64,000 bases of DNA from Escherichia coli (lineage in GTDB: Bacteria; Pseudomonadota; Gammaproteobacteria; Enterobacterales; Enterobacteriaceae). The notes below the pieces were generated by a model. It had not been told where the DNA came from, did no database searches, and saw only the letters and a program-made list of their open reading frames with translations. The translations under genes were made by a program, and so were the position numbers. The stretch lies in NCBI RefSeq assembly GCF_003790525.1, contig NZ_CP033635.1; one strand, 5' to 3'. This document shows, piece by piece, positions 13,003 through 36,850 of this stretch (its first letter is position 1; each line of letters begins with the position of its first letter).

Positions 13003-13030
13003 AAAACCGGCTCTGTCAGGAGCCGGTTTG
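13003..13030 (+). terminator. gudD terminator hairpin (aaaccggct...agccggttt)
   Basis: 9-bp stem immediately after gudD stop, between convergent gudD and barA. Confidence 0.5.
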
Positions 13031-21354: not shown

Positions 21355-23007
<1,653 letters not shown>

Positions 23008-23018
23008 GAAAAAAGTTA

Positions 23019-23050
23019 GAACGGCAACGCGTACCCTGGGTACGCGTTGT
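23019..23050 (+). terminator. pyrG terminator-like hairpin
   Basis: caacgcgtaccctgggtacgcgttg inverted repeat after pyrG stop. Confidence 0.4.
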
Positions 23051-23078
23051 TTGTCTGGAGTTTCAGTTTAACTAGTGA

Positions 23079-24392
<1,314 letters not shown>

Positions 24393-24433
24393 GTCTGACT
24401 TTATCTGATTTAAAAATGCCAGCCTTCGGGCTG

Positions 24434-25859
24434 TAATGCCAGTCAGTTAAGCAACTGACTGGCTCTTTTTCGGGGCTGTGGGGTATTTCCAGGGCCTCTC
24501 CTTTACCACTCTCGGGAAGGCCCTTTCCCTTCTTGTCGGTAATTTCACAAGTTGTCCCATACTTGCAAGATCGCGCATCAGCTCCGGTATACGTCCCGGT
24601 GAAGCGCCCTGCAATGTCATCAGCATTCTCATCACCATTCCACATGATTCTGAGAAACTCAGTTGATTCGGCCAGTAACCTTTCAGATATTCCGCCATTT
24701 TAATCATCTGATATCTCACCAGATTATAAGCCAGTAAGACACCCCACAGCTCTTGCTCCACAAGCTCCGGTTTTTTACTTCTCAGCGTCAGCCTGCTCAG
24801 TTGCATCGTCTGTTTTATCTCCCTGTATCCCAGTTCGATTTCCCAGCGATGACTGTACAGATCCGCCATTTCTCCTCCGGGGAAGCGCATGGCGTCCGTC
24901 ATCGACGTCAGCAGATGGCAGACTTTTCCTTTGCGCGTCACGGTCAGCAGGCGGGCTGTCACTTCATTTCCCAGTCCCGGCCACTTTTTTCGTGCCTGCG
25001 GGCTGGTTTTCAGCTTCACCAGATGATCGCCTTTACCCAGTTTTCTGATCTCTTCATATTGCGCTCCCTTTCTGAGAGGTATCATCCAGTGGCGGTGTTC
25101 TCCCGCCAGGCTCCAGGCATTTAACAGTCCCAGTGAGTAATAACCTTTATCCATTAACGTCAGAGTGTTATCGCCGGTTTGTTCTATAAGTTGCTCAGCA
25201 AGCTCATTTTCGCTGTTCTTCATCGTGCCGAAGGCTGCAGCCGTCAGCAGATGGCTGGTCAGTTCCATCTGGCAGACCATTTTGACCTGCGGGTAGAGCG
25301 CCGGGTTCCCGGCATGTGTCTGGCGGGGGAAGGCTGCATCGTTCTCTGGTGTATCCGGTGTGCGCCAGAACACACCATCGATGGCCAGCAGGGTCAGGCC
25401 GCACCAGTGCGGATGCGGCGTGGCGTTATGCCAGAGCTGCGCTGTTTTCGTGAACACGCGGCGGACAGCCTCACTTCCCAGGCGCTGGCGGGCCTGAATA
25501 ACGGCACTGGGGGCAACGAAGGGGCGATTGCCCGGCAGCATGATGTCCAGGCGATTCACAATCTGGTGAAGAGGTTCTTTACGCTCAAGCGCCATGCCAA
25601 CAATACACCAGACCATCATTTCGAGGGGAAGACGGCGCTTGCGTAGCGTTACAGTACCTGATTCGGCAAGGCAACGAGAGATGAGTTCGGGGTCGAGGTA
25701 ATCCCCCAGAGAAGTCAGTGGGTTACGCAGAGAATCGTAACGGGATACCAGATCAAGAGCCTGTCCAATGTGCATAAAAAAATCCGGAAACAAGTGAGCG
25801 TTTCCGGATTCTTACACAGCCACTGGATCGGTCAACTGATCCTTAACTGATCGGCATTA
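24434..25859 (-). mobile_element. IS4 insertion sequence
   Basis: about 1426 bp; terminal imperfect IRs (taatgccagtcagttaag / cttaactgatcggcattac); flanked by direct repeat cagccttcgggctg (13-14 bp); contains DDE transposase. Confidence 0.9.
24447..25775 (-). CDS. insG: IS4 transposase
   Basis: about 442-aa IS4-family DDE transposase ([15 protein letters not shown]...); track start 25793 is a short extension. Confidence 0.9.
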
Positions 25860-25891
25860 CAGCCTTCGGGCTGGCATTTTTTATGGCTGAG

Positions 25892-26764
25892 TTACCAGCG
25901 GCCAGACGCGCCGCCACCGCCAGAAGAACCGCCACCTCCGTTAAATCCGCCGCCAGTTGAGCCGCCACCAGAACCGCCGCTGTCTGAATGATAACTTCTA
26001 CCTGATGCTTTTTTCTGTGGGACACATAACCAGGTAAAGACCATAATGATGGTGAAAGCAAAAAAGAAGGAAAATACAGCAATGGAAAAAGTTTGATCGG
26101 AGAACAGGAATAAATCTATAAGATAGACTGTTGAAATACAAACACTGCTTTTAAATGCCCGACAAAAATTATTGCCTTGATGAAAAAACCAGAAAGGGAA
26201 GAACATCACTGCAAATACCCAAAAAATAGCAAAGTAGTAATGATCACTGGAAGACGCTGATTCACTTTCTGAAGGATTAGACGAATATTGGTGTTGTGAA
26301 GTGAGTTGGTTATTCAAAGCGATTATAGCTAATTCTAATCCCTTAGCTAATTTTTGTTTTTTAAAGGCGGGTATCATGATGCTACGGATGATATTGCCAG
26401 CCAGAGCATCGGTTACCTTTTCTTCCAGCCCATAACCTACCTGGATGCGGACAGTACGATCCGACCAGGCAACAATGATCAGTATCCCATCATTACGTTT
26501 GGCATCTCCTAAACGCCAATTGTCAAAAACTCTTGTAGCATATTGTTCAATAGAATCGTCTCCGGTGGATGGCACTATTAATACAGCGACCTGTGCCCGT
26601 GTTTTTTGTGTAATATCCTGCAGCTGTTGTGTTAGTGATTGTTGTTCAGACGTGCTTAAGGTACCAGTAATATCGGTCACCTGTTGGCGCAGCTCCGGCA
26701 CAGCAATTTGCTGGGCAAGCACAGGAAGGCACCATAAAGTGAGTAGAAAAAGGATTATACGCAT
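25892..26764 (-). CDS. ygcG: TPM-domain membrane protein YgcG
   Basis: 290 aa from MRIILF...; signal peptide, TPM domain, TM segments, C-terminal Gly/Ser tail ending GGGGASGRW. Confidence 0.8.
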
Positions 26765-26769
26765 AACGA

Positions 26770-27918
26770 TCACCAACGGTCGGATGAACCGCCGCCTCCT
26801 GAAGAACCGCCGCCACCGCGGAAAGAATTTTTCGACGAAGAGCGAGAATGAGCATTACGATTCCCCGTTTTCCTGTTGCTTTTTTCTCCTGACCCCAGCT
26901 TAAGATTGCCAGTAAATTTGGCCACAATGATCAGCAGAACGATGCCAGCAATGGTTATTGGGCCGATAAAATGATCAATTAACCCAATAATTGTTGAGAT
27001 GAATGCTATATCTTTATTACTGGCGAATACCAGGCACCATCCCACAACAATTATCAGCAGCACGACAAACAATGAGTTTCGTTCGGATTGAGAAACCTGC
27101 TGAGTCGTCTTTTGTTTTTTCACTTTAGCGTTTTTATTTTTTGGGGCCAGCATCATAGGAAATACGCGATACATATGAAAAATTACCGCGAGACGCTGCC
27201 AGCAGGTTGCTGCGAAAAATAAACTAAAACAAACGAGCGATACCCGCCGAATGATGACATCATCCTGAAAGAAGAAAAACCAGACCATAGGAGTAATCAT
27301 CGATATCATCCATATGCCAGGCCCGGGACGGCTGGTAAATCGCCAGAGGACAACGATGGCAACGATCATCAGTAATGTCCAGGCAAGACATGGCAGCGAG
27401 CGTTGCGGATTAGCAAACAGATGATTGGCTAAAGCATCCAAAGGGCTAAGATTCGCTTTTATATAGGTAAACTGTGCGATGCCTTCAATTCCCTGCGTTA
27501 ACCCGGAGAAGAGATTATTTTTTTTGAATTCCGGTTGCATATGGTAATGAACAATTTGCGCAGCTTGTTCCGGTGGCAGCATCTCTTTCAGTCCATGCCC
27601 AATCTTCATTGACGCCAGCCCTTCCGGCCAAACGACGAGAATTAAGATACCTTCGCCGTACCGCTTCTCTCCAACGGGTTTCCAGTGATATAACCCGTAG
27701 CTCTGAGAGGCTGCAAGTTTAATGTTTTTGCCCCCTGTGGTCGGCGTAACCAACACGGCCACCTGGAAGTGGTTTTGCTGCTCGAGAGTCTGTAATTGTT
27801 GATTTAAAGCAGTTTGTTCTTCTGTCGTTAATGTCCCGGTTAAGTCAGTTACTGAAGGCAATTGTTCAGCGAATGCCTGGAAACCATATAGCATCAGAAG
27901 TAAGAGAAAAATACGCAT
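26770..27918 (-). CDS. TPM-domain membrane protein, divergent paralogue
   Basis: 382 aa; signal peptide, divergent TPM-like domain, several TM segments, Lys-rich linker, C-terminal [15 protein letters not shown]. Confidence 0.7.
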
Positions 27919-27932
27919 TTCAATTCCTTTTG

Positions 27933-28826
27933 TTACCAGCGCCCGGAGGCGCCACCGCCGCCAGATGAACCGCCGCCGCCGCGGAAATTGTCATTGTCGA
28001 ATGAAGAGGATGACGATGACGAATAGTGGGAGGAAGAATTACTTCTTGTATGGCGTGATGGCTGGTTGGTATTACGCATCGAATCCCGAACCTTTTTGCC
28101 GAAGGGAGTAAAAGCGATGGCGACAGCCAGGAACGGTGTGGCGAAGCAGAGTAATGTTGCGAGCACTCCCCAGCTTCCGCTGAAACCTGCTATAGGTAAA
28201 ACAAAGGCCAGTACAATAGCTGCGAAGCAAATCAGTCCCAGCGTTTTGATATATCCTCTGGCAGAAATAAACGTCAGTATTATCGCCCAGACTAACAAAG
28301 CCCACCAACCGCTAAAGGGCAAAGGGTGATCGGTCGGTGTTATCGTTGCTGAATTATTCCCCGTCAGGCGACTTTCAATATCGTTGATCCCCTTTTGTAA
28401 ACCACCAGCCAGGTCGCCTTTTTTAAATGCCGGAATAATACTGTTGCGAATAATTTTCCCGGACTGTACATCCGTAATAATACCTTCCAGTCCGTAACCG
28501 ATTTCAATACGCACGGTATGATCCTGCCAGGCGACTAACAGTAGAACGCCATCATCGCGGTCTTTATCACCCGGTTTCCAGCTATCGAATACCCGCGTTG
28601 CGTACTGCTCGATGGTTTCATCGCCTGTTGTATCAACCACTAACACGACCAACTGTGCGTGGTTTTTTTGCGTCAGGGCTTTAATCTGGTTGGTCAGGGT
28701 GTTTACTTCGCTGTTTGTTAATGTGCCGGTTAAGTCATTCACATACTTGGGGGATTCAGGTACTGGAATTTGTGTGGCAAACACAGATGAACAGAAGAAA
28801 GCCATAAGGAAGATAAAATTTCGCAT
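27933..28826 (-). CDS. TPM-domain membrane protein, close paralogue of YgcG
   Basis: about 297 aa from MRNFIFLMAFF; shares [11 protein letters not shown] and VAW-D-TVRI-GYGLE blocks with ygcG; C-terminal [15 protein letters not shown]. Confidence 0.75.
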   Translation of the reverse strand: MRNFIFLMAFFCSSVFATQIPVPESPKYVNDLTGTLTNSEVNTLTNQIKALTQKNHAQLVVLVVDTTGDETIEQYATRVFDSWKPGDKDRDDGVLLLVAWQDHTVRIEIGYGLEGIITDVQSGKIIRNSIIPAFKKGDLAGGLQKGINDIESRLTGNNSATITPTDHPLPFSGWWALLVWAIILTFISARGYIKTLGLICFAAIVLAFVLPIAGFSGSWGVLATLLCFATPFLAVAIAFTPFGKKVRDSMRNTNQPSRHTRSNSSSHYSSSSSSSFDNDNFRGGGGSSGGGGASGRW

Positions 28827-28839
28827 AGAACTTCCCCGC

Positions 28840-29442
28840 TTAATGCGCATTAGCATTCTGGCTAAAATCTATTGTTGGGGCTTTACTTACTGCGGTGACA
28901 TCATCCGGCAAATAATTTTTCTTTGGTGTGTAATCCATGACCTTTGCGGTTAATACAGCGGGGAATTTGCGGATAGTGACATTATATTGTTCAATGGCTT
29001 TAATATATCTTCCTCGCGCAACGGCAATTCTATTTTCACTTCCTTCGAGCTGTACCATTAAGTTTTGATAGAGTTCCTGAGCTTTTAACTCAGGGTAACG
29101 TTCACTAATTATCGTTAACTGACCGAGAGTGCGAGACACCTGCGCCTGGGCTTGTTGCCAGGCTTGTAATTTTTGCGCATCTCCCGGAGCTTGCTGAAGA
29201 TCGCTACTGGCGCGATTAGCCTGGCTACGTGCCAATGTTACGGCTTCCAGTACCTCTTGTTCATGGCTAGAATAACCTTTAATACTGGCGACAAGATTAG
29301 GAATAAGATCGGCGCGACGTTGATATTGATTCAATACCTCAGACCAGGAGGCGTTAACCTGCTCATCATAGGTTTGAATATCGTTATATCCACAGCCTGA
29401 TAAATTGACAATAAATATAATTACGATGAATATCCTGAGCAT
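28840..29442 (-). CDS. lemA: LemA-family lipoprotein
   Basis: 200 aa; lipobox LSGC at N-terminus; LemA proteins typically sit next to TPM-domain genes. Confidence 0.75.
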   Translation of the reverse strand: MLRIFIVIIFIVNLSGCGYNDIQTYDEQVNASWSEVLNQYQRRADLIPNLVASIKGYSSHEQEVLEAVTLARSQANRASSDLQQAPGDAQKLQAWQQAQAQVSRTLGQLTIISERYPELKAQELYQNLMVQLEGSENRIAVARGRYIKAIEQYNVTIRKFPAVLTAKVMDYTPKKNYLPDDVTAVSKAPTIDFSQNANAH

Positions 29443-30371: not shown

Positions 30372-31379
30372 TTATCGGTAGCGTTTTTGTAGACTGGCAG
30401 GAAGATAACGCTGTAATGGGGATGGCGTTTCACCTTCAATCAGTTGCGAAATAAGTTCAAAGCAGTGAAAAGCAAGTTGGCGATTATCCTGTTGTATTGT
30501 GTCGATTCTTACCGAAAGTGAATCATACAAGTAATGATCATCAAAACTCGCCAGGTGGATTTTACTGTCGAGTAAATTATATTGGCTCATATAGCGCAGA
30601 ACGCCTTCCAGTAATCCACAAGCGGCAGTGAATAAGGCTTTAGGGGGACGTCCTAAACGAGCGCATAGCGCGGCAAACATTTCATAGCCTGAGCTCGGAT
30701 GATAATTACCGTGAATAATCCATTCAGGTTGTAGCGTTACTCCGGCTTGCTGCAAGCCTTGTGTAAATCCTTCCAGTCGATCGCGAGTCGGTGACAAACG
30801 GGGTTGTCCGCCCAGAAAATAGAATTCATCCGGGTGACTCCGTGCAATATCTGCCACCAGAGCGGCGGTGGGAGAAACAGAGTCAGTAATGACCAATGGC
30901 AATGTGCTGCCGTTCATGTGGCGATCGAACAACACAACAGGTAATTGCTCGCTAAGTTTTTGATAGTCATTATCATGCAGCATACTGGATGCGACGATTA
31001 ACCCATCAACCTGGCGGGCAATCATATTGTTCACCACCATTGTTTCCTGTGAAGGATTTTCATCAGTACAGGATATGAGGAGTTGGACTCCCGCTTCCCG
31101 ACACAATGTTTCCAGTTCATGGGAAAATACTGCAAATCCGTAGTTAGTGATTTCAGGAACGACGAGACCAATGGTGTGACTGCGGTTGTCCCGTAATGAG
31201 CGGGCATGAATGCTGGGCTGATAATGCTGCTGTTGGGCAATACTCAGCACACGCTCACGCGTTTCCTGCGCAACACGTAACTCTTTGCCACGACCATTGA
31301 GAACCAGACTGGCGGTTGCTTTCGACACTCCCGCCAGTTCAGCAATGTCTTTAATAGTAACGCGTTTGGTTTTTCTCAC
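30372..31379 (-). CDS. scrR: LacI-family sucrose operon repressor
   Basis: 335 aa; N-terminal HTH ([22 protein letters not shown]) plus periplasmic-binding-like fold; last gene of the scr cluster. Confidence 0.8.
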
Positions 31380-31404
31380 GACGAGGATCCGTAATTCAAA
31401 ACCC

Positions 31405-32814
31405 TCATTCTACCATGCAGGCGCGTAGCGACCAGTAGTGTAACGTGACGTCAGACTCGCCCTGTAATATCAGCGAAGCTGGATGATGGGGAAAATAACG
31501 ATTGCTCATTACGCCTTCGCCATTATTGATGAATATCTCTATGCTGGAACTGTCACAGAGAATCTTCAGTGACGTTACGCTTCCTCGCCAGTAACGAGTT
31601 AGTTTCTCTTGCCCTGCAAGGCTTTTCCTCTGTAGTTGAATACCATCGTCATTAAGATGCAGTGCCAGTGCGTTGCCAAAATTCAGATGTAGCTCGCCTG
31701 ATGGAATGATGTCCATTTCCAGACGTTCAATTGCGACAGGCGGCGCATGATCCGCTTTTCCTTGCCAGAAGTGTTCAGCTTCACGCAGTTGCGCGAGTTC
31801 CCTGATTGGCATCTGAAATAATTTTCCCTTCTGGAATGAGAGTTCGCGAAAACAGGTCATTTGATGCTGCCAATGATGCTTTCTGGTTGGTTGCAACATC
31901 TCTTCGCCATCAGGAACCCCCATCCAGCCGACCAGTAATCGTCGCCCGTCCGGGGCTTCCATCGTCTGTGGTGCATAGAATTCAAATCCCGCATCCAGCT
32001 CTGAGAAAGCGCCATGCGTAAATTTGCCTGTCTCGTAATCAAACTGTCCATGTAGCCAGGCGCAGGGATAGGTATTCAGATAGCGCTCATGTTCGCGCGC
32101 CATTCCCTGGGGGCAGCAGAGGAGAATGTATTCACCATCAAGGGCGAAAAGATCAGGACATTCCCACATGTATCCTGCGTTATCAATTTCATTCAGACCA
32201 TTACCAGCAATTTCTCCATGAAAAGACCAGGTATAGAGATCGACAGAGGAATACAGCAGCACTTTCCCCCGTTTCTCTTTATCTTGCGCGCCAAGCACCA
32301 TGTACCATCGGCTGTTGTGCTTCCAGACTTTTGGATCACGAACATGTCCGGTGTAACCATCAGGTAACGGTATGACAGGGCCTAATTTATCAAACCCGCC
32401 CTGGTTATTTTCGGTGGCCAGACATTGCCATGCCGTTCTGCTGCCATCATCAAACTTAACATTACCGGTATAGCAAAGTGTGAGAACGCCCTGATTATTA
32501 ACCGCGCTTCCTGAGTAACAACCATTACGGTCATACTCTTTATCGGGCATTAGCGCTAATGGTTCATGCTGCCAGTGCAATAAATCCGTCGAACTCCAGT
32601 GCCCCCAACATTTGTACTTATGATTACAATCCAATGGATTCCACTGATAAAACAGATGATAGCGGCCTCCTGACCAGCAAAAGCCATTTGGATCGTTCAT
32701 TAGTCCGGTGACGGGAGCGAGATGCCAACAAGGATAGTGGGCATCTGCCTGTGCTTTGGACTGACCTTTCATCACTGCCTGTAAAATCGCGGGCATTTGT
32801 GAAGGCATCGACAT
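31405..32814 (-). CDS. scrB: sucrose-6-phosphate hydrolase (GH32 invertase)
   Basis: 469 aa with GH32 NDPNG catalytic motif. Confidence 0.85.
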
Positions 32815-34184
32815 TACTCCTCGTCTGTTTTGTATTTGAGCAATAAAGAGAGACTAAAAGCGACAGCGAAAGCAATCACCATTCCAATAATATAATTAAC
32901 CAACGATGTTGGCTGAACGATTGCCATGCCGGGTATTGCGGTCAGACCAACGGCAGTCATATAAACGTGAACAGAGACAACCCAGGCACCGCCGGCAGCG
33001 CCACCAATTAAGGCCGCAATAAAAGGTTTAACAAAACGAAGGTTGATACCAAAAATAGCGGCTTCAGTAATCCCTAACATTGCGGAAAAAGCCGAGGGTA
33101 GGGTGATTGCTTTAATTTTTGTATCTTTGGTTTTAAACCATACCGCCAGACATGCACCGCCTTGCGCAACGTTTGCCATTGCCCAAATAGGCAGCAGGAA
33201 ATTAACACCGATTGCAGGGTTACCTAAAAGTCCTGCTTCAATTGCGTGGAAGCTATGATGAATACCCGTAATAACAATCGCTGAATATAGCCCGCCGAAT
33301 AACAACCCCGCTAACCAGCCAGCGTGTGCAATCAGCGTGCTGAGAACGAAAGAGATACCATCACCTAACGCTCGCCCTGCCGGACCAATAATTAAAAGAG
33401 CGATAAAGCCAGAAATGACGACAGTCAGAAATGGCGTCAGAATGAGATCCAGAGCATCAGGGATAAACCTGCGTAACTGTTTTTCCACTATGCTCATAAA
33501 CCATACTGCCAGAAGCACGGGGAAAACCGTTCCCTGATAGCCAATCATGGCGATTTCAAAACCGAAGAAGTTCATTGTCTGAAATCCCGCAGCAACGCCC
33601 CAGGCATTTGTGAGTGCCGGGTGAGTCAGAATCCCTCCTAATGTCGCGCCAAGATAAGGATTTCCACCAAATTCACGAGCAGCAGTAAAGCCAATCAGGA
33701 TGGGGAGAATAATAAATGCGGCTGAACTGCACATATCCAGCAGGATATAAATCGCATTATCGGCATTCACCCAGCCATATGTTTTCACCATTCCCAGAAG
33801 CCCCATTAATAAACCAGAAGCAACAATGGCAGGAATGATGGGGACAAAAATATTAGAAAGCAGCCGTGCTATTCGCTGAAAAGGATTGAGTTTTTGAGCG
33901 GCGAGTCGAGCGGTATCTGCTTTACTGGATTCGCTAATACCCGCAACCTGAATAAAGGCAGCATAGACTTTATTAACCACGCCGGTGCCAAAGATGATCT
34001 GCATTTGCCCTGAATTACGAAAACAACCTTTCACTCCATCAATCTGGCCAATGGCATGTTGATCGGCAAGTGTGTCGTCAACCAGTACCAGCCGTAGGCG
34101 AGTGGCGCAATGTGCTGCACTGGCGATGTTCTCCTTACCACCTAATAAAGGAAGCAACGATTGGGCGATTTTATCGAAATCCAT
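32814..34184 (-). CDS. scrA: PTS sucrose-specific EIIBC component
   Basis: 456 aa; N-terminal EIIB Cys motif (CATRLRL) followed by polytopic EIIC. Confidence 0.85.
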   Translation of the reverse strand: MDFDKIAQSLLPLLGGKENIASAAHCATRLRLVLVDDTLADQHAIGQIDGVKGCFRNSGQMQIIFGTGVVNKVYAAFIQVAGISESSKADTARLAAQKLNPFQRIARLLSNIFVPIIPAIVASGLLMGLLGMVKTYGWVNADNAIYILLDMCSSAAFIILPILIGFTAAREFGGNPYLGATLGGILTHPALTNAWGVAAGFQTMNFFGFEIAMIGYQGTVFPVLLAVWFMSIVEKQLRRFIPDALDLILTPFLTVVISGFIALLIIGPAGRALGDGISFVLSTLIAHAGWLAGLLFGGLYSAIVITGIHHSFHAIEAGLLGNPAIGVNFLLPIWAMANVAQGGACLAVWFKTKDTKIKAITLPSAFSAMLGITEAAIFGINLRFVKPFIAALIGGAAGGAWVVSVHVYMTAVGLTAIPGMAIVQPTSLVNYIIGMVIAFAVAFSLSLLLKYKTDEE

Positions 34185-34244
34185 ATAACCCTCTAATTCA
34201 TTGTTATTTCAGTAAAAGCCTCACATTCGTGAGGCTGTCTGGTA

Positions 34245-35786
<1,542 letters not shown>

Positions 35787-35805
35787 TTATAAAAATTGCT
35801 AAAAT

Positions 35806-35879
35806 GCTAAACCGGTTTAGGTGTTGATAATAAAGCTGACTTTTTAGCCAGAGCAATTATTTTCGCTAAACCGATTTAG
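35806..35879. promoter_or_regulatory. two palindromic operator-like sites (gctaaaccggtttag at 35806-35820; gctaaaccgatttag at 35865-35879) in the scrY promoter region
   Basis: near-perfect LacI-type palindromes TAAACCGGTTTA in the scrK-scrY intergenic region. Confidence 0.55.
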
Positions 35880-35929
35880 TAAATGTGACAGGCACGACAA
35901 ATCGGGTTACAGATACAACAGCAGGATCA

Positions 35930-36850
35930 CTATTGTGAAGGGAGATCGTGTTGTCGGGGTAAGGCGGTTATCGCGCCTTTAGCCGTGGTCGCCAGAGCAC
36001 CACAAATCTGAGCTTGTGCAATGATTCGTTCAAGCTGTCTGGTATTTGTTGGTATTCCAGAATCAGCCAGACCTGCAAGTAATCCAGCGACAAAAGCATC
36101 TCCTGCCCCGGTCGTATCGACGACAGAAACAGGTTTGGCGGGATAGTGGATAAACTGCCCCTGAAAATACACAAGTACGCCATTTTTTCCTTGTGTAATA
36201 AGCAATAAAGTCAACGAATAACGTTGTACTAATGAATATGCGCCTTGCTGAACCTGGCTTTCGCCACTGATGAATAGCAACTCTTCTTCGGACAATTTAG
36301 CGATATTCGCCAGCGAAAGTGCGCGATCAAGGTATTTCCTTAATAGCGCTTCACTCTGCCAGAGATCGCTGCGGATATTGGGATCAAAACTGATGTTTCC
36401 GCCAGCCTGACGTATTTTCTCCATAGCCAGAAATGCGGTACTTCGGGAAGGTTCTGCACTGAGCGCAATGGAACAAAGATGGAGCCATTCACCCGGCCCA
36501 AATGCAGGAAGGTCACCAGGTTGTAAAAAAAGATCGGCACTTGGGCGTACCATAAAGGTAAAGTTTCTTTCTCCTTGCTCATCAAGTCCTACAGCCACAA
36601 TTGAGGTGCGTTGTTGAGGATCAAGAGACATATAATGTGTATCAACATTTTCTGTACTCAGTGTCTGATACATAAAGCGACCGAAAGGATCATCGCCAAC
36701 TTTGCCAATAAAGGCACTTTTCCCCCCCAGCCTTGCGATACCGACTGCAACATTAGCAGGCGCCCCGCCAGGACACTGTAGTAGTCTCCCCTGGCTTTCG
36801 GGTAATAAATCAACAACCGCATCACCGAGTACCCATACTCTTGCGCTCAT
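35930..36850 (-). CDS. scrK: fructokinase (PfkB family)
   Basis: 306 aa with PfkB signature (DTTGAGDAF). Confidence 0.85.
   Translation of the reverse strand: MSARVWVLGDAVVDLLPESQGRLLQCPGGAPANVAVGIARLGGKSAFIGKVGDDPFGRFMYQTLSTENVDTHYMSLDPQQRTSIVAVGLDEQGERNFTFMVRPSADLFLQPGDLPAFGPGEWLHLCSIALSAEPSRSTAFLAMEKIRQAGGNISFDPNIRSDLWQSEALLRKYLDRALSLANIAKLSEEELLFISGESQVQQGAYSLVQRYSLTLLLITQGKNGVLVYFQGQFIHYPAKPVSVVDTTGAGDAFVAGLLAGLADSGIPTNTRQLERIIAQAQICGALATTAKGAITALPRQHDLPSQ

Follow-up and report, generated by a model that had tools for sequence, protein, structure and literature searches.

A complete IS4 copy between eno and ygcG of Escherichia coli occupies a recurrent IS4 target site

The 64,000-nt stretch of E. 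coli DNA that we analysed (the window) carries a complete copy of the insertion sequence IS4 between the convergent genes eno and ygcG, at a site that in its uninterrupted form is predicted to be a bidirectional intrinsic terminator. The site is an IS4 hot spot to the exact nucleotide and fits the target consensus of the element; the insertion there is not a chance event. We consider it highly probable that an intact, typical IS4 has transposed into a preferred target. Since IS4 repeatedly picks such sites, and this very position, the insertion is an ordinary one; it is also already known, being present and annotated in public genomes.

The inserted element and its empty site

The element spans window positions 24434-25859 (1426 bp) in the minus orientation. 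When aligned to the feature annotated as "insertion sequence:IS4" in E. coli K-12 MG1655 (insG; NC_000913.3 4502090-4503515, also 1426 bp), it is identical at 1420 of 1426 positions (99.6%; six differences), with equal length, identical ends and the same 442-aa transposase frame. The copy starts with TAATGCC and finishes with GGCATTA, and its terminal inverted repeats are 18 bp long, with 16 of the 18 positions matching. In the orientation of the window the right repeat, IRR (TAATGCCAGTCAGTTAAG), forms the left end of the element (24434-24451), and the left repeat, IRL, forms its right end (25842-25859; the reverse complement of TAATGCCGATCAGTTAAG). Comparison of TAATGCCGATCAGTTAAG with TAATGCCAGTCAGTTAAG reveals the end signature -AATR... 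that has been described for the IS4 subgroup (Table 1 of PMC2266710).

The transposase is encoded on the minus strand (24447-25775) by a single long, unframeshifted open reading frame of 442 aa, counted from the ATG at 25775; the RefSeq annotation places the start at a TTG at 25793, giving 448 aa. Its product matches the Pfam domains Nterm_IS4 (3e-33) and DDE_Tnp_1 (9e-32), and carries at residue 307 the Y(2)R(3)E(6)K motif, the signature of the IS4 family by the family definition in PMC2266710. The exact protein is recorded in 392 collection blocks. The identity with the MG1655 copy, the Pfam domains and the YREK motif therefore establish that the element is IS4 itself, with an intact DDE transposase frame and both ends intact. 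The first-pass annotation of this DNA had called the element IS4 and left its transposase frame and repeat boundaries to be confirmed against a reference, and the alignment confirms both. The extent given there (24411-25883) had the right place and was too wide for the IS proper, the remainder being the two halves of the interrupted terminator. The intact frame and ends would be compatible with transposition activity of this particular copy, and the recurrent insertions seen in related genomes (below) show that this type of element is active. No second IS4 copy or IS4 end was found elsewhere within the window, and an Rfam scan of positions 23000-27000 in E-value mode returned no known RNA family.

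A repeat search identified the direct repeat CAGCCTTCGGGCTG on both sides of the element, with the left copy at 24420-24433 and the right copy at 25860-25873. The two copies are 100% identical over 14 bp; of the 13-14 bp that had been proposed from first inspection, the upper value holds and the lower does not. This is one base above the 10-13 bp published as the duplication range of the IS4 subgroup (PMC2266710). Across the 23 IS4 loci that we surveyed (see below), duplications were of 11 bp (2 loci), 12 bp (8 loci), 13 bp (9 loci) and 14 bp (4 loci), and given this spread of 11-14 bp, a duplication of 14 bp would fall within the real range of IS4. We also considered whether the C that begins the duplication belongs to the IS, which would bring the duplications to 11-13 bp. 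This assignment was rejected, because in every case the C is also found at the far end of the left repeat copy and is therefore duplicated target DNA.

To the left of the element in the window lies eno (enolase; 23094-24392, plus strand; Pfam Enolase_N and Enolase_C; annotated in E. coli SMS-3-5), and to its right lies ygcG, which encodes a TPM-domain protein (25892-26764, minus strand; Pfam TPM_phosphatase; placed by mapping the SMS-3-5 annotation to the window). The two genes are convergent, and the eno transcript enters the left IS4 junction. ygcG is the last gene in a lemA-TPM-TPM-ygcG cluster. Deleting the IS and one copy of the repeat restores AAAAATGCCAGCCTTCGGGCTGGCATTTTT, the same 30-mer that the first-pass annotation had quoted, as a hairpin in the centre of a 59-bp gap between the eno and ygcG stop codons. 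A comparison with empty-site alleles, which had been suggested at that stage, was carried out here: at least 4107 of 5426 complete E. coli genomes contain the reconstructed site without interruption over 80% or more of a 400-nt query, and the empty site is the common allele in this species.

The empty site folds into a 13-bp stem with a 4-nt loop (UUCG on the plus strand and CGAA on the minus strand), at -20.7 kcal/mol on the plus strand and -20.3 kcal/mol on the minus strand (z = -4.6 and -5.9, respectively; none of 200 shuffled sequences was equally stable). Within this stem the GC-rich core comprises 7 bp (-13.9 and -13.0 kcal/mol), and the tails are T6 and T5. The stem is thus followed by a T-run on both strands, the layout of an intrinsic terminator that works in either direction. 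On the basis of the stem-loop, the U-tracts and the position between convergent genes, the empty site is predicted to act as such a Rho-independent terminator in both directions. The initial proposal that IS4 had entered the eno/ygcG terminator hairpin is borne out by this 13-bp stem. We found no paper treating ygcG, eno and the terminator together in our literature search.

Transcription at the occupied site

The insertion splits the 13-bp stem and leaves on each side a 5-bp hairpin formed from the duplicated core. The left remnant, recognised from sequence and fold, consists of the A-tract, TGC and the left duplicated core (24412-24433), and the right remnant of the duplicated core, GCA and the T-tract (25860-25881). 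In the inward direction, in which eno and ygcG read into the element, the half hairpins are followed by TAATGCC in place of a U-tract, so that they should not terminate either gene. Consistent with this prediction, the left half read from eno (plus strand, -7.2 kcal/mol) and the right half read from ygcG (minus strand, -6.3 kcal/mol) both have a T score of 1.22, as compared to 2.74 for the native terminator on the plus strand (stem of -13.9 kcal/mol) and 2.29 on the minus strand (stem of -13.0 kcal/mol). In the outward direction each half hairpin keeps GCA and a run of five to six T residues, and would be a weak terminator at best: the left half on the minus strand, where transcription from the transposase reads out, has a stem of -6.3 kcal/mol and a T score of 0.82, and the right half on the plus strand, where antisense transcription reads out, has -7.2 kcal/mol and 0.98.

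IS4 itself contains two terminator-like structures that face inward. The first, which was reported by a terminator scan and dominates the fold of this region, lies on the plus strand at 24438-24470, beginning 5 nt inside the IS. It is composed of a perfect 11-bp stem (24438-24463) between IRR and an internal complement, followed by TCTTTTT, and it overlaps the last codons of the transposase (-17.5 kcal/mol; T score 2.9). The second, identified as an inverted repeat and by folding, lies on the minus strand at 25771-25813, about 46 nt inside the IRL end; it has a 10-15-bp stem and a U7 run that abuts the transposase ATG (-14.6 kcal/mol; T score 4.54). Both structures equal or exceed the native terminator in score. 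Transcription entering from eno is therefore predicted by these scores to be stopped by the IRR structure, and transcription entering from ygcG by the IRL-proximal hairpin, which would also shield the transposase from outside transcription. We infer that eno transcripts would extend about 30 nt beyond their end in the empty allele, to the IRR hairpin and its UCUUUUU, and ygcG transcripts about 75 nt beyond theirs, to the hairpin and U7 that precede the transposase ATG (25813-25771). If the transcripts end in this way, both host genes would remain terminated and the transposase would remain shielded, and the loss of eno/ygcG termination is probably compensated by the IS4-borne structures. The IRR hairpin may also exist for other reasons, as it overlaps both coding sequence and the transposase binding site.

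Alternatively, the insertion may have abolished termination, with the highly expressed eno reading antisense to the transposase gene and ygcG reading into that gene, thereby changing host and IS expression; altered termination had been the concern of the first-pass annotation. The splitting of the native stem into remnants of low stability and low T score (1.22; native terminator, 2.3-2.7), devoid of an inward U-tract, is in line with such an outcome. However, each transcript would meet a strong hairpin-plus-T-run structure soon after entering the element (5 nt from the IRR end of the IS and about 46 nt from its IRL end), and 161 complete genomes, diverse in background and host (human, animal and water sources), have the occupied eno/ygcG allele, a distribution that speaks against a marked fitness cost. 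We therefore regard an outright loss of termination as unlikely, and favour replacement by the structures carried within IS4.

A consensus scan also retrieved a candidate transposase promoter, TTGACC-16-AAGAAT with an upstream TG, on the minus strand at 25808-25835; the match is weak, and the scan found 2 sites as compared to 2.1 expected. Transposase transcripts from this promoter would begin within the 5' arm of the IRL-proximal hairpin, which would then be formed only by read-through transcripts. Protection of IS transposases from outside activation is a classical idea, and the layout of the candidate promoter and hairpin would fit it.

The IS4 target sequence

To define the IS4 target, loci were gathered by exact matches to four transposase variants and supplemented with the K-12 copy, giving 23 distinct IS4 loci, all from extant genomes and hence already filtered by selection. 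Alignment of the 46 half-sites on the edges of the duplications yielded a half-site consensus of AAAA-Y-G/C-N followed by the cut, with C as the next base, so that the full site reads AAAA-Y-S-N|C...G|N-S-R-TTTT. Conservation is strongest in the A-tract, with A at position -6 in 44/46 half-sites, at position -5 in 42/46, and at each of positions -8, -7 and -4 in 35-36 of 46. Position -3 is C or T in 38/46 half-sites, position -2 is G or C in 39/46, and the first duplicated base is C in 36/46. The eno site shows these conserved arms, with AAAAATGC on the left (A-tract) and GCATTTTT on the right (T-tract). A striking specificity of both target arms, left and right, was reported for the IS4 subgroup by De Palmenaer et al. 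2008 (PMC2266710), and our 23-locus consensus displays the same conserved arms; the arm consensus of IS4 is thus old knowledge.

The predictive value of this consensus was assessed with a half-site matrix built from 13 sites, the eno site excluded, which was used to scan the 62.5-kb window with the IS removed. The eno/ygcG terminator ranked first among 614 candidates, scoring 23.5 bits of a maximum possible 26.0, with the runner-up at 17.1 bits. This top match also placed the first duplicated base (24420) correctly and agreed with the actual duplication length.

At 12-, 13- and 14-bp duplications alike, 3 nt separate the A-run from the duplicated sequence. Each cut is therefore seemingly measured from its own arm, with the length of the duplication tracking the spacing of the arms; judged from the aligned sites, this seems to provide a simple reason for the variable duplications of IS4 and for the 14 bp found here. 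In the mechanism we propose, IS4 would select a two-fold symmetric site in which an A-tract is followed by three bases (Y, G/C, N) and a cut, usually before a C, with a T-tract on the far side as the mirror image of the A-tract half-site, and staggered cuts 11-14 bp apart would produce the duplication. Bidirectional terminators, being composed of an A-run, a GC-rich palindrome and a T-run, would naturally fit such a consensus, and for this reason would be the main landing sites of IS4; the near-perfect match of the eno/ygcG terminator would then account for repeated entry of IS4 at the same base and in both orientations.

The palindromic nature of many of these sites raises the alternative that IS4 recognises extruded cruciform or hairpin DNA and not the sequence of the arms. 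Indeed, 15/23 sites are strong palindromes that fold at -11 kcal/mol or better, and among the first 14 distinct sites 10 are at or below the 5th percentile of folding energy of 40-mers in the window. However, roughly 6-8 of the 23 sites can scarcely form a hairpin. Those in benE, bcsG, a DUF4049 gene, a GH31 gene, hsdS and the ravA/kup gap are nearly hairpin-free (0 to -6 kcal/mol), and these sites nonetheless keep A-tract and/or T-tract arms at the 3-nt distance. Moreover, a duplication length that tracks arm spacing would be the natural outcome of recognition of one arm by each transposase subunit. Since intragenic sites with little hairpin potential have kept their arms, the arms and not the hairpin are likely to be the signal; we thus find targeting by DNA structure improbable, and the feature recognised by IS4 is probably the pair of arms.

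With regard to genomic context, 13/23 loci are at gene 3' ends. Seven loci lie between convergent genes (tdk/adhE, eno/ygcG, rpoD/mug, degS/mdh, ybaM/mscK, ail/sulfatase and ssb/yjcB), six just downstream of a gene in a tandem pair, six inside genes, and four in other or unclear contexts. Six loci are occupied by IS4 in both orientations.

Recurrence of the insertion and related elements

The junction between eno and IS4 was found at full length, in the orientation of the window, in 77 complete genomes, and a constructed query with IS4 flipped was matched at full length in 84 others. Detailed inspection covered six sequences: the window, SMS-3-5 and MS 21-1, which have the window orientation, and CE10, AR_0077 and RMDEC465, which have the opposite one. 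In all six the IS is 1426 bp long and is inserted at the identical base, with the same 14-bp repeat. The flanks of these sequences represent four distinct haplotypes, with the window and SMS-3-5 sharing one, and CE10 and AR_0077 nearly alike on the ygcG side. Between haplotypes, 8-21 of 1300 positions differ on the eno side, and 9 to about 550 ungapped mismatches over 850 nt are seen on the ygcG side. The gene past ygcG also varies by haplotype, being either queE or a further TPM gene, and both IS4 orientations are found on both of these backgrounds. Inversion was rejected as the source of the opposite orientation: recombination between IS copies cannot turn an element around within its own flanks, and the opposite orientation therefore represents a separate insertion. 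IS4 has thus inserted independently at this exact base at least twice, and probably four or more times.

The closest relative among these, E. coli SMS-3-5, carries the same insertion with an identical IS copy (NC_010498.1 2988428-2989853), and differs from the window at 3 of 44,287 positions (over the first 44,287 bases of the window). Its RefSeq record annotates the transposase at eno/ygcG and leaves the split terminator unmentioned; terminators divided at IS4 junctions are a feature that annotation pipelines could mark. Altogether, IS4 was found in 2686/5426 genomes, in 5494 places; the eno/ygcG position accounts for about 3% of all IS4 copies, a share that is inflated by common descent.

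That IS4 inserts nearly at random and merely survives where it is harmless, for example between convergent genes, is very unlikely in our judgement: all sampled sites do come from surviving genomes and 13/23 are at gene 3' ends, at which the host can probably tolerate an insertion, but this leaves unexplained the same base and 14-bp repeat in both orientations on different haplotypes, as well as the six loci hit in both orientations, and it is at odds with the half-site motif conserved at six intragenic sites, with a leave-one-out matrix that finds the exact base within 62.5 kb, and with a non-coding bias that is also seen in selection-free mutation-accumulation lines of K-12, where 4 of 8 new IS4 insertions were non-coding (P = 0.02; PMC5009759). 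Targeted insertion into a preferred site thus remains our preferred reading. The terminators at eno/ygcG, tdk/adhE, bamD/raiA, msyB/mdoH and other places are independently hit, recurrent hot spots, and the presence or orientation of IS4 at these loci is therefore unreliable as a marker of common descent.

For the eno/ygcG locus itself the insertion has little significance, as this is a textbook IS whose position follows the known A-tract/T-tract target preference. The generalisations from the side survey may merit follow-up, namely terminators as the main sites, cuts measured from the arms, and possible replacement terminators, all of which derive from sequence comparison. A broader reading, which we offer tentatively and with somewhat more doubt than confidence, is that IS4 is a dedicated seeker of bidirectional terminators which measures its cuts 3 nt from each arm and swaps one host terminator for two of its own. 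If true, this would explain why a few dozen E. coli terminators are hit repeatedly, in both orientations and with little apparent cost. Were the terminator swap real, IS4 would also be an example of a DDE transposon that keeps its effect on host transcription small. The link to terminators, the arm-measured stagger and the idea of a replacement terminator were not found in the literature that we searched: the word "terminator" is absent from PMC2266710, in which the link to bidirectional terminators is not drawn, a Shigella IS paper (PMC7373316) mentions IS4 expansion and not IS4 targets, and a bioRxiv preprint that came up dealt with IS481 and not with IS4. A search for insertion sequences together with rho-independent terminators retrieved no relevant paper, and one for IS4 with pheS or attenuator found none.

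Mayaux et al. reportedly observed, in 1984, an IS4 insertion in the pheS,T attenuator, and are said to have derived AAA-N20-TTT as the target consensus. The eno site fits this pattern exactly (AAA, 20 nt, TTT), as does that of the K-12 copy, whose AAA and TTT arms are 20 nt apart and whose duplication is 12 bp long. The K-12 target is nevertheless at another locus, a weak palindrome (-8.1 kcal/mol) in a prophage-like region and not a terminator between housekeeping genes.

Other mobile elements show comparable preferences. IS231A, a member of the IS4 family, is said to have been found by Hallet et al. in 1994 to target a symmetric GC core between A/T-rich bent flanks; it is a different element in a different host, with a different consensus. 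Group IIC introns, which insert at terminators, and Tn7, which inserts at attTn7, likewise home to palindromes or gene ends. IS elements that target REP palindromes (Tobes and Pareja 2006; PMC1525189) share with IS4, as an analogy only, the strategy of using extragenic palindromic or 3'-end sites with little damage to the host. The recombinases and recognition mechanisms of the REP-targeting IS elements, group IIC introns and Tn7 differ from those of IS4.

Overlap of coding sequence and a predicted terminator at the right end of IS4

At window 24447-24470, the final codons of the minus-strand transposase gene (KKSQSVA-stop) coincide with the T-run and the 3' arm of the hairpin that the right terminal inverted repeat forms with its internal complement. 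A single short stretch thus has three roles: it codes for protein, it is complementary to the end bound by the transposase, and it is a predicted terminator of incoming transcription.

IS4 targets and copies elsewhere

Scanning the window, with IS4 removed, against the IS4 target matrix (built from 13 sites that do not include eno) gave the next-best scores to unoccupied sites at 13010, 8051 and 21214. The first of these, aaaaaccgGCTCTGTCAGGAGccggtttg, lies between the convergent genes barA and gudD, so that it represents a further terminator-like palindrome, one that could be used by IS4.

Copies at other loci vary in the details of their targets. At the bamD/raiA site (loci L003 and L015), alleles with a one-base difference in the loop were found, with a corresponding duplication of 14 or 13 bp. 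In L003, a single base separates the two copies of the 14-bp repeat (CAGTCC versus CAGCCC), indicating a mutation that occurred later than the insertion. The copy within benE (L010) is 1425 bp long, one base short, and only one side of its target carries an A-tract arm.

IS4 is also carried by plasmids, with 231 records in the plasmid collection containing it at an identity of at least 99%. The IS4-matching plasmid records (n = 382) were mostly from Escherichia (187) or Shigella (132), the rest including Klebsiella, Salmonella and Proteus among other genera, and the majority of the 382 were conjugative plasmids.

Variable gene content beyond ygcG

Window 1-44287 differs from the chromosome of E. 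coli SMS-3-5 (NC_010498.1) by 3 mismatches in 44,287 bases, its counterpart there running on the reverse strand from about 3014286 down to 2970000; the SMS-3-5 annotation was converted to window positions as p = 3014287 - r. This annotation places a sucrose utilisation cluster in the queE to ygcE interval (30372-36850), with genes for a kinase, a carbohydrate porin, a sucrose PTS IIBC component, a sucrose-6-phosphate hydrolase and a LacI-type regulator, which together look like an accessory island.

On the ygcG side of IS4, the window holds a cluster (25892-29442) of lemA, a TPM gene annotated as partial, a second TPM gene (382 aa) and, last, ygcG, whereas in CE10, AR_0077, MS 21-1 and one other strain a small frameshifted ORF and queE come directly after ygcG. 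Gene content past ygcG therefore varies among E. coli. The size of the ygcG product differs by strain (290, 293 or 300 aa). Two tandem 18-nt near-repeats, GCCAGACGCGCCGCCACC and GCCAGAAGAACCGCCACC, occupy the 3' end of ygcG (25901-25936), within a G/C-rich and apparently repetitive stretch.
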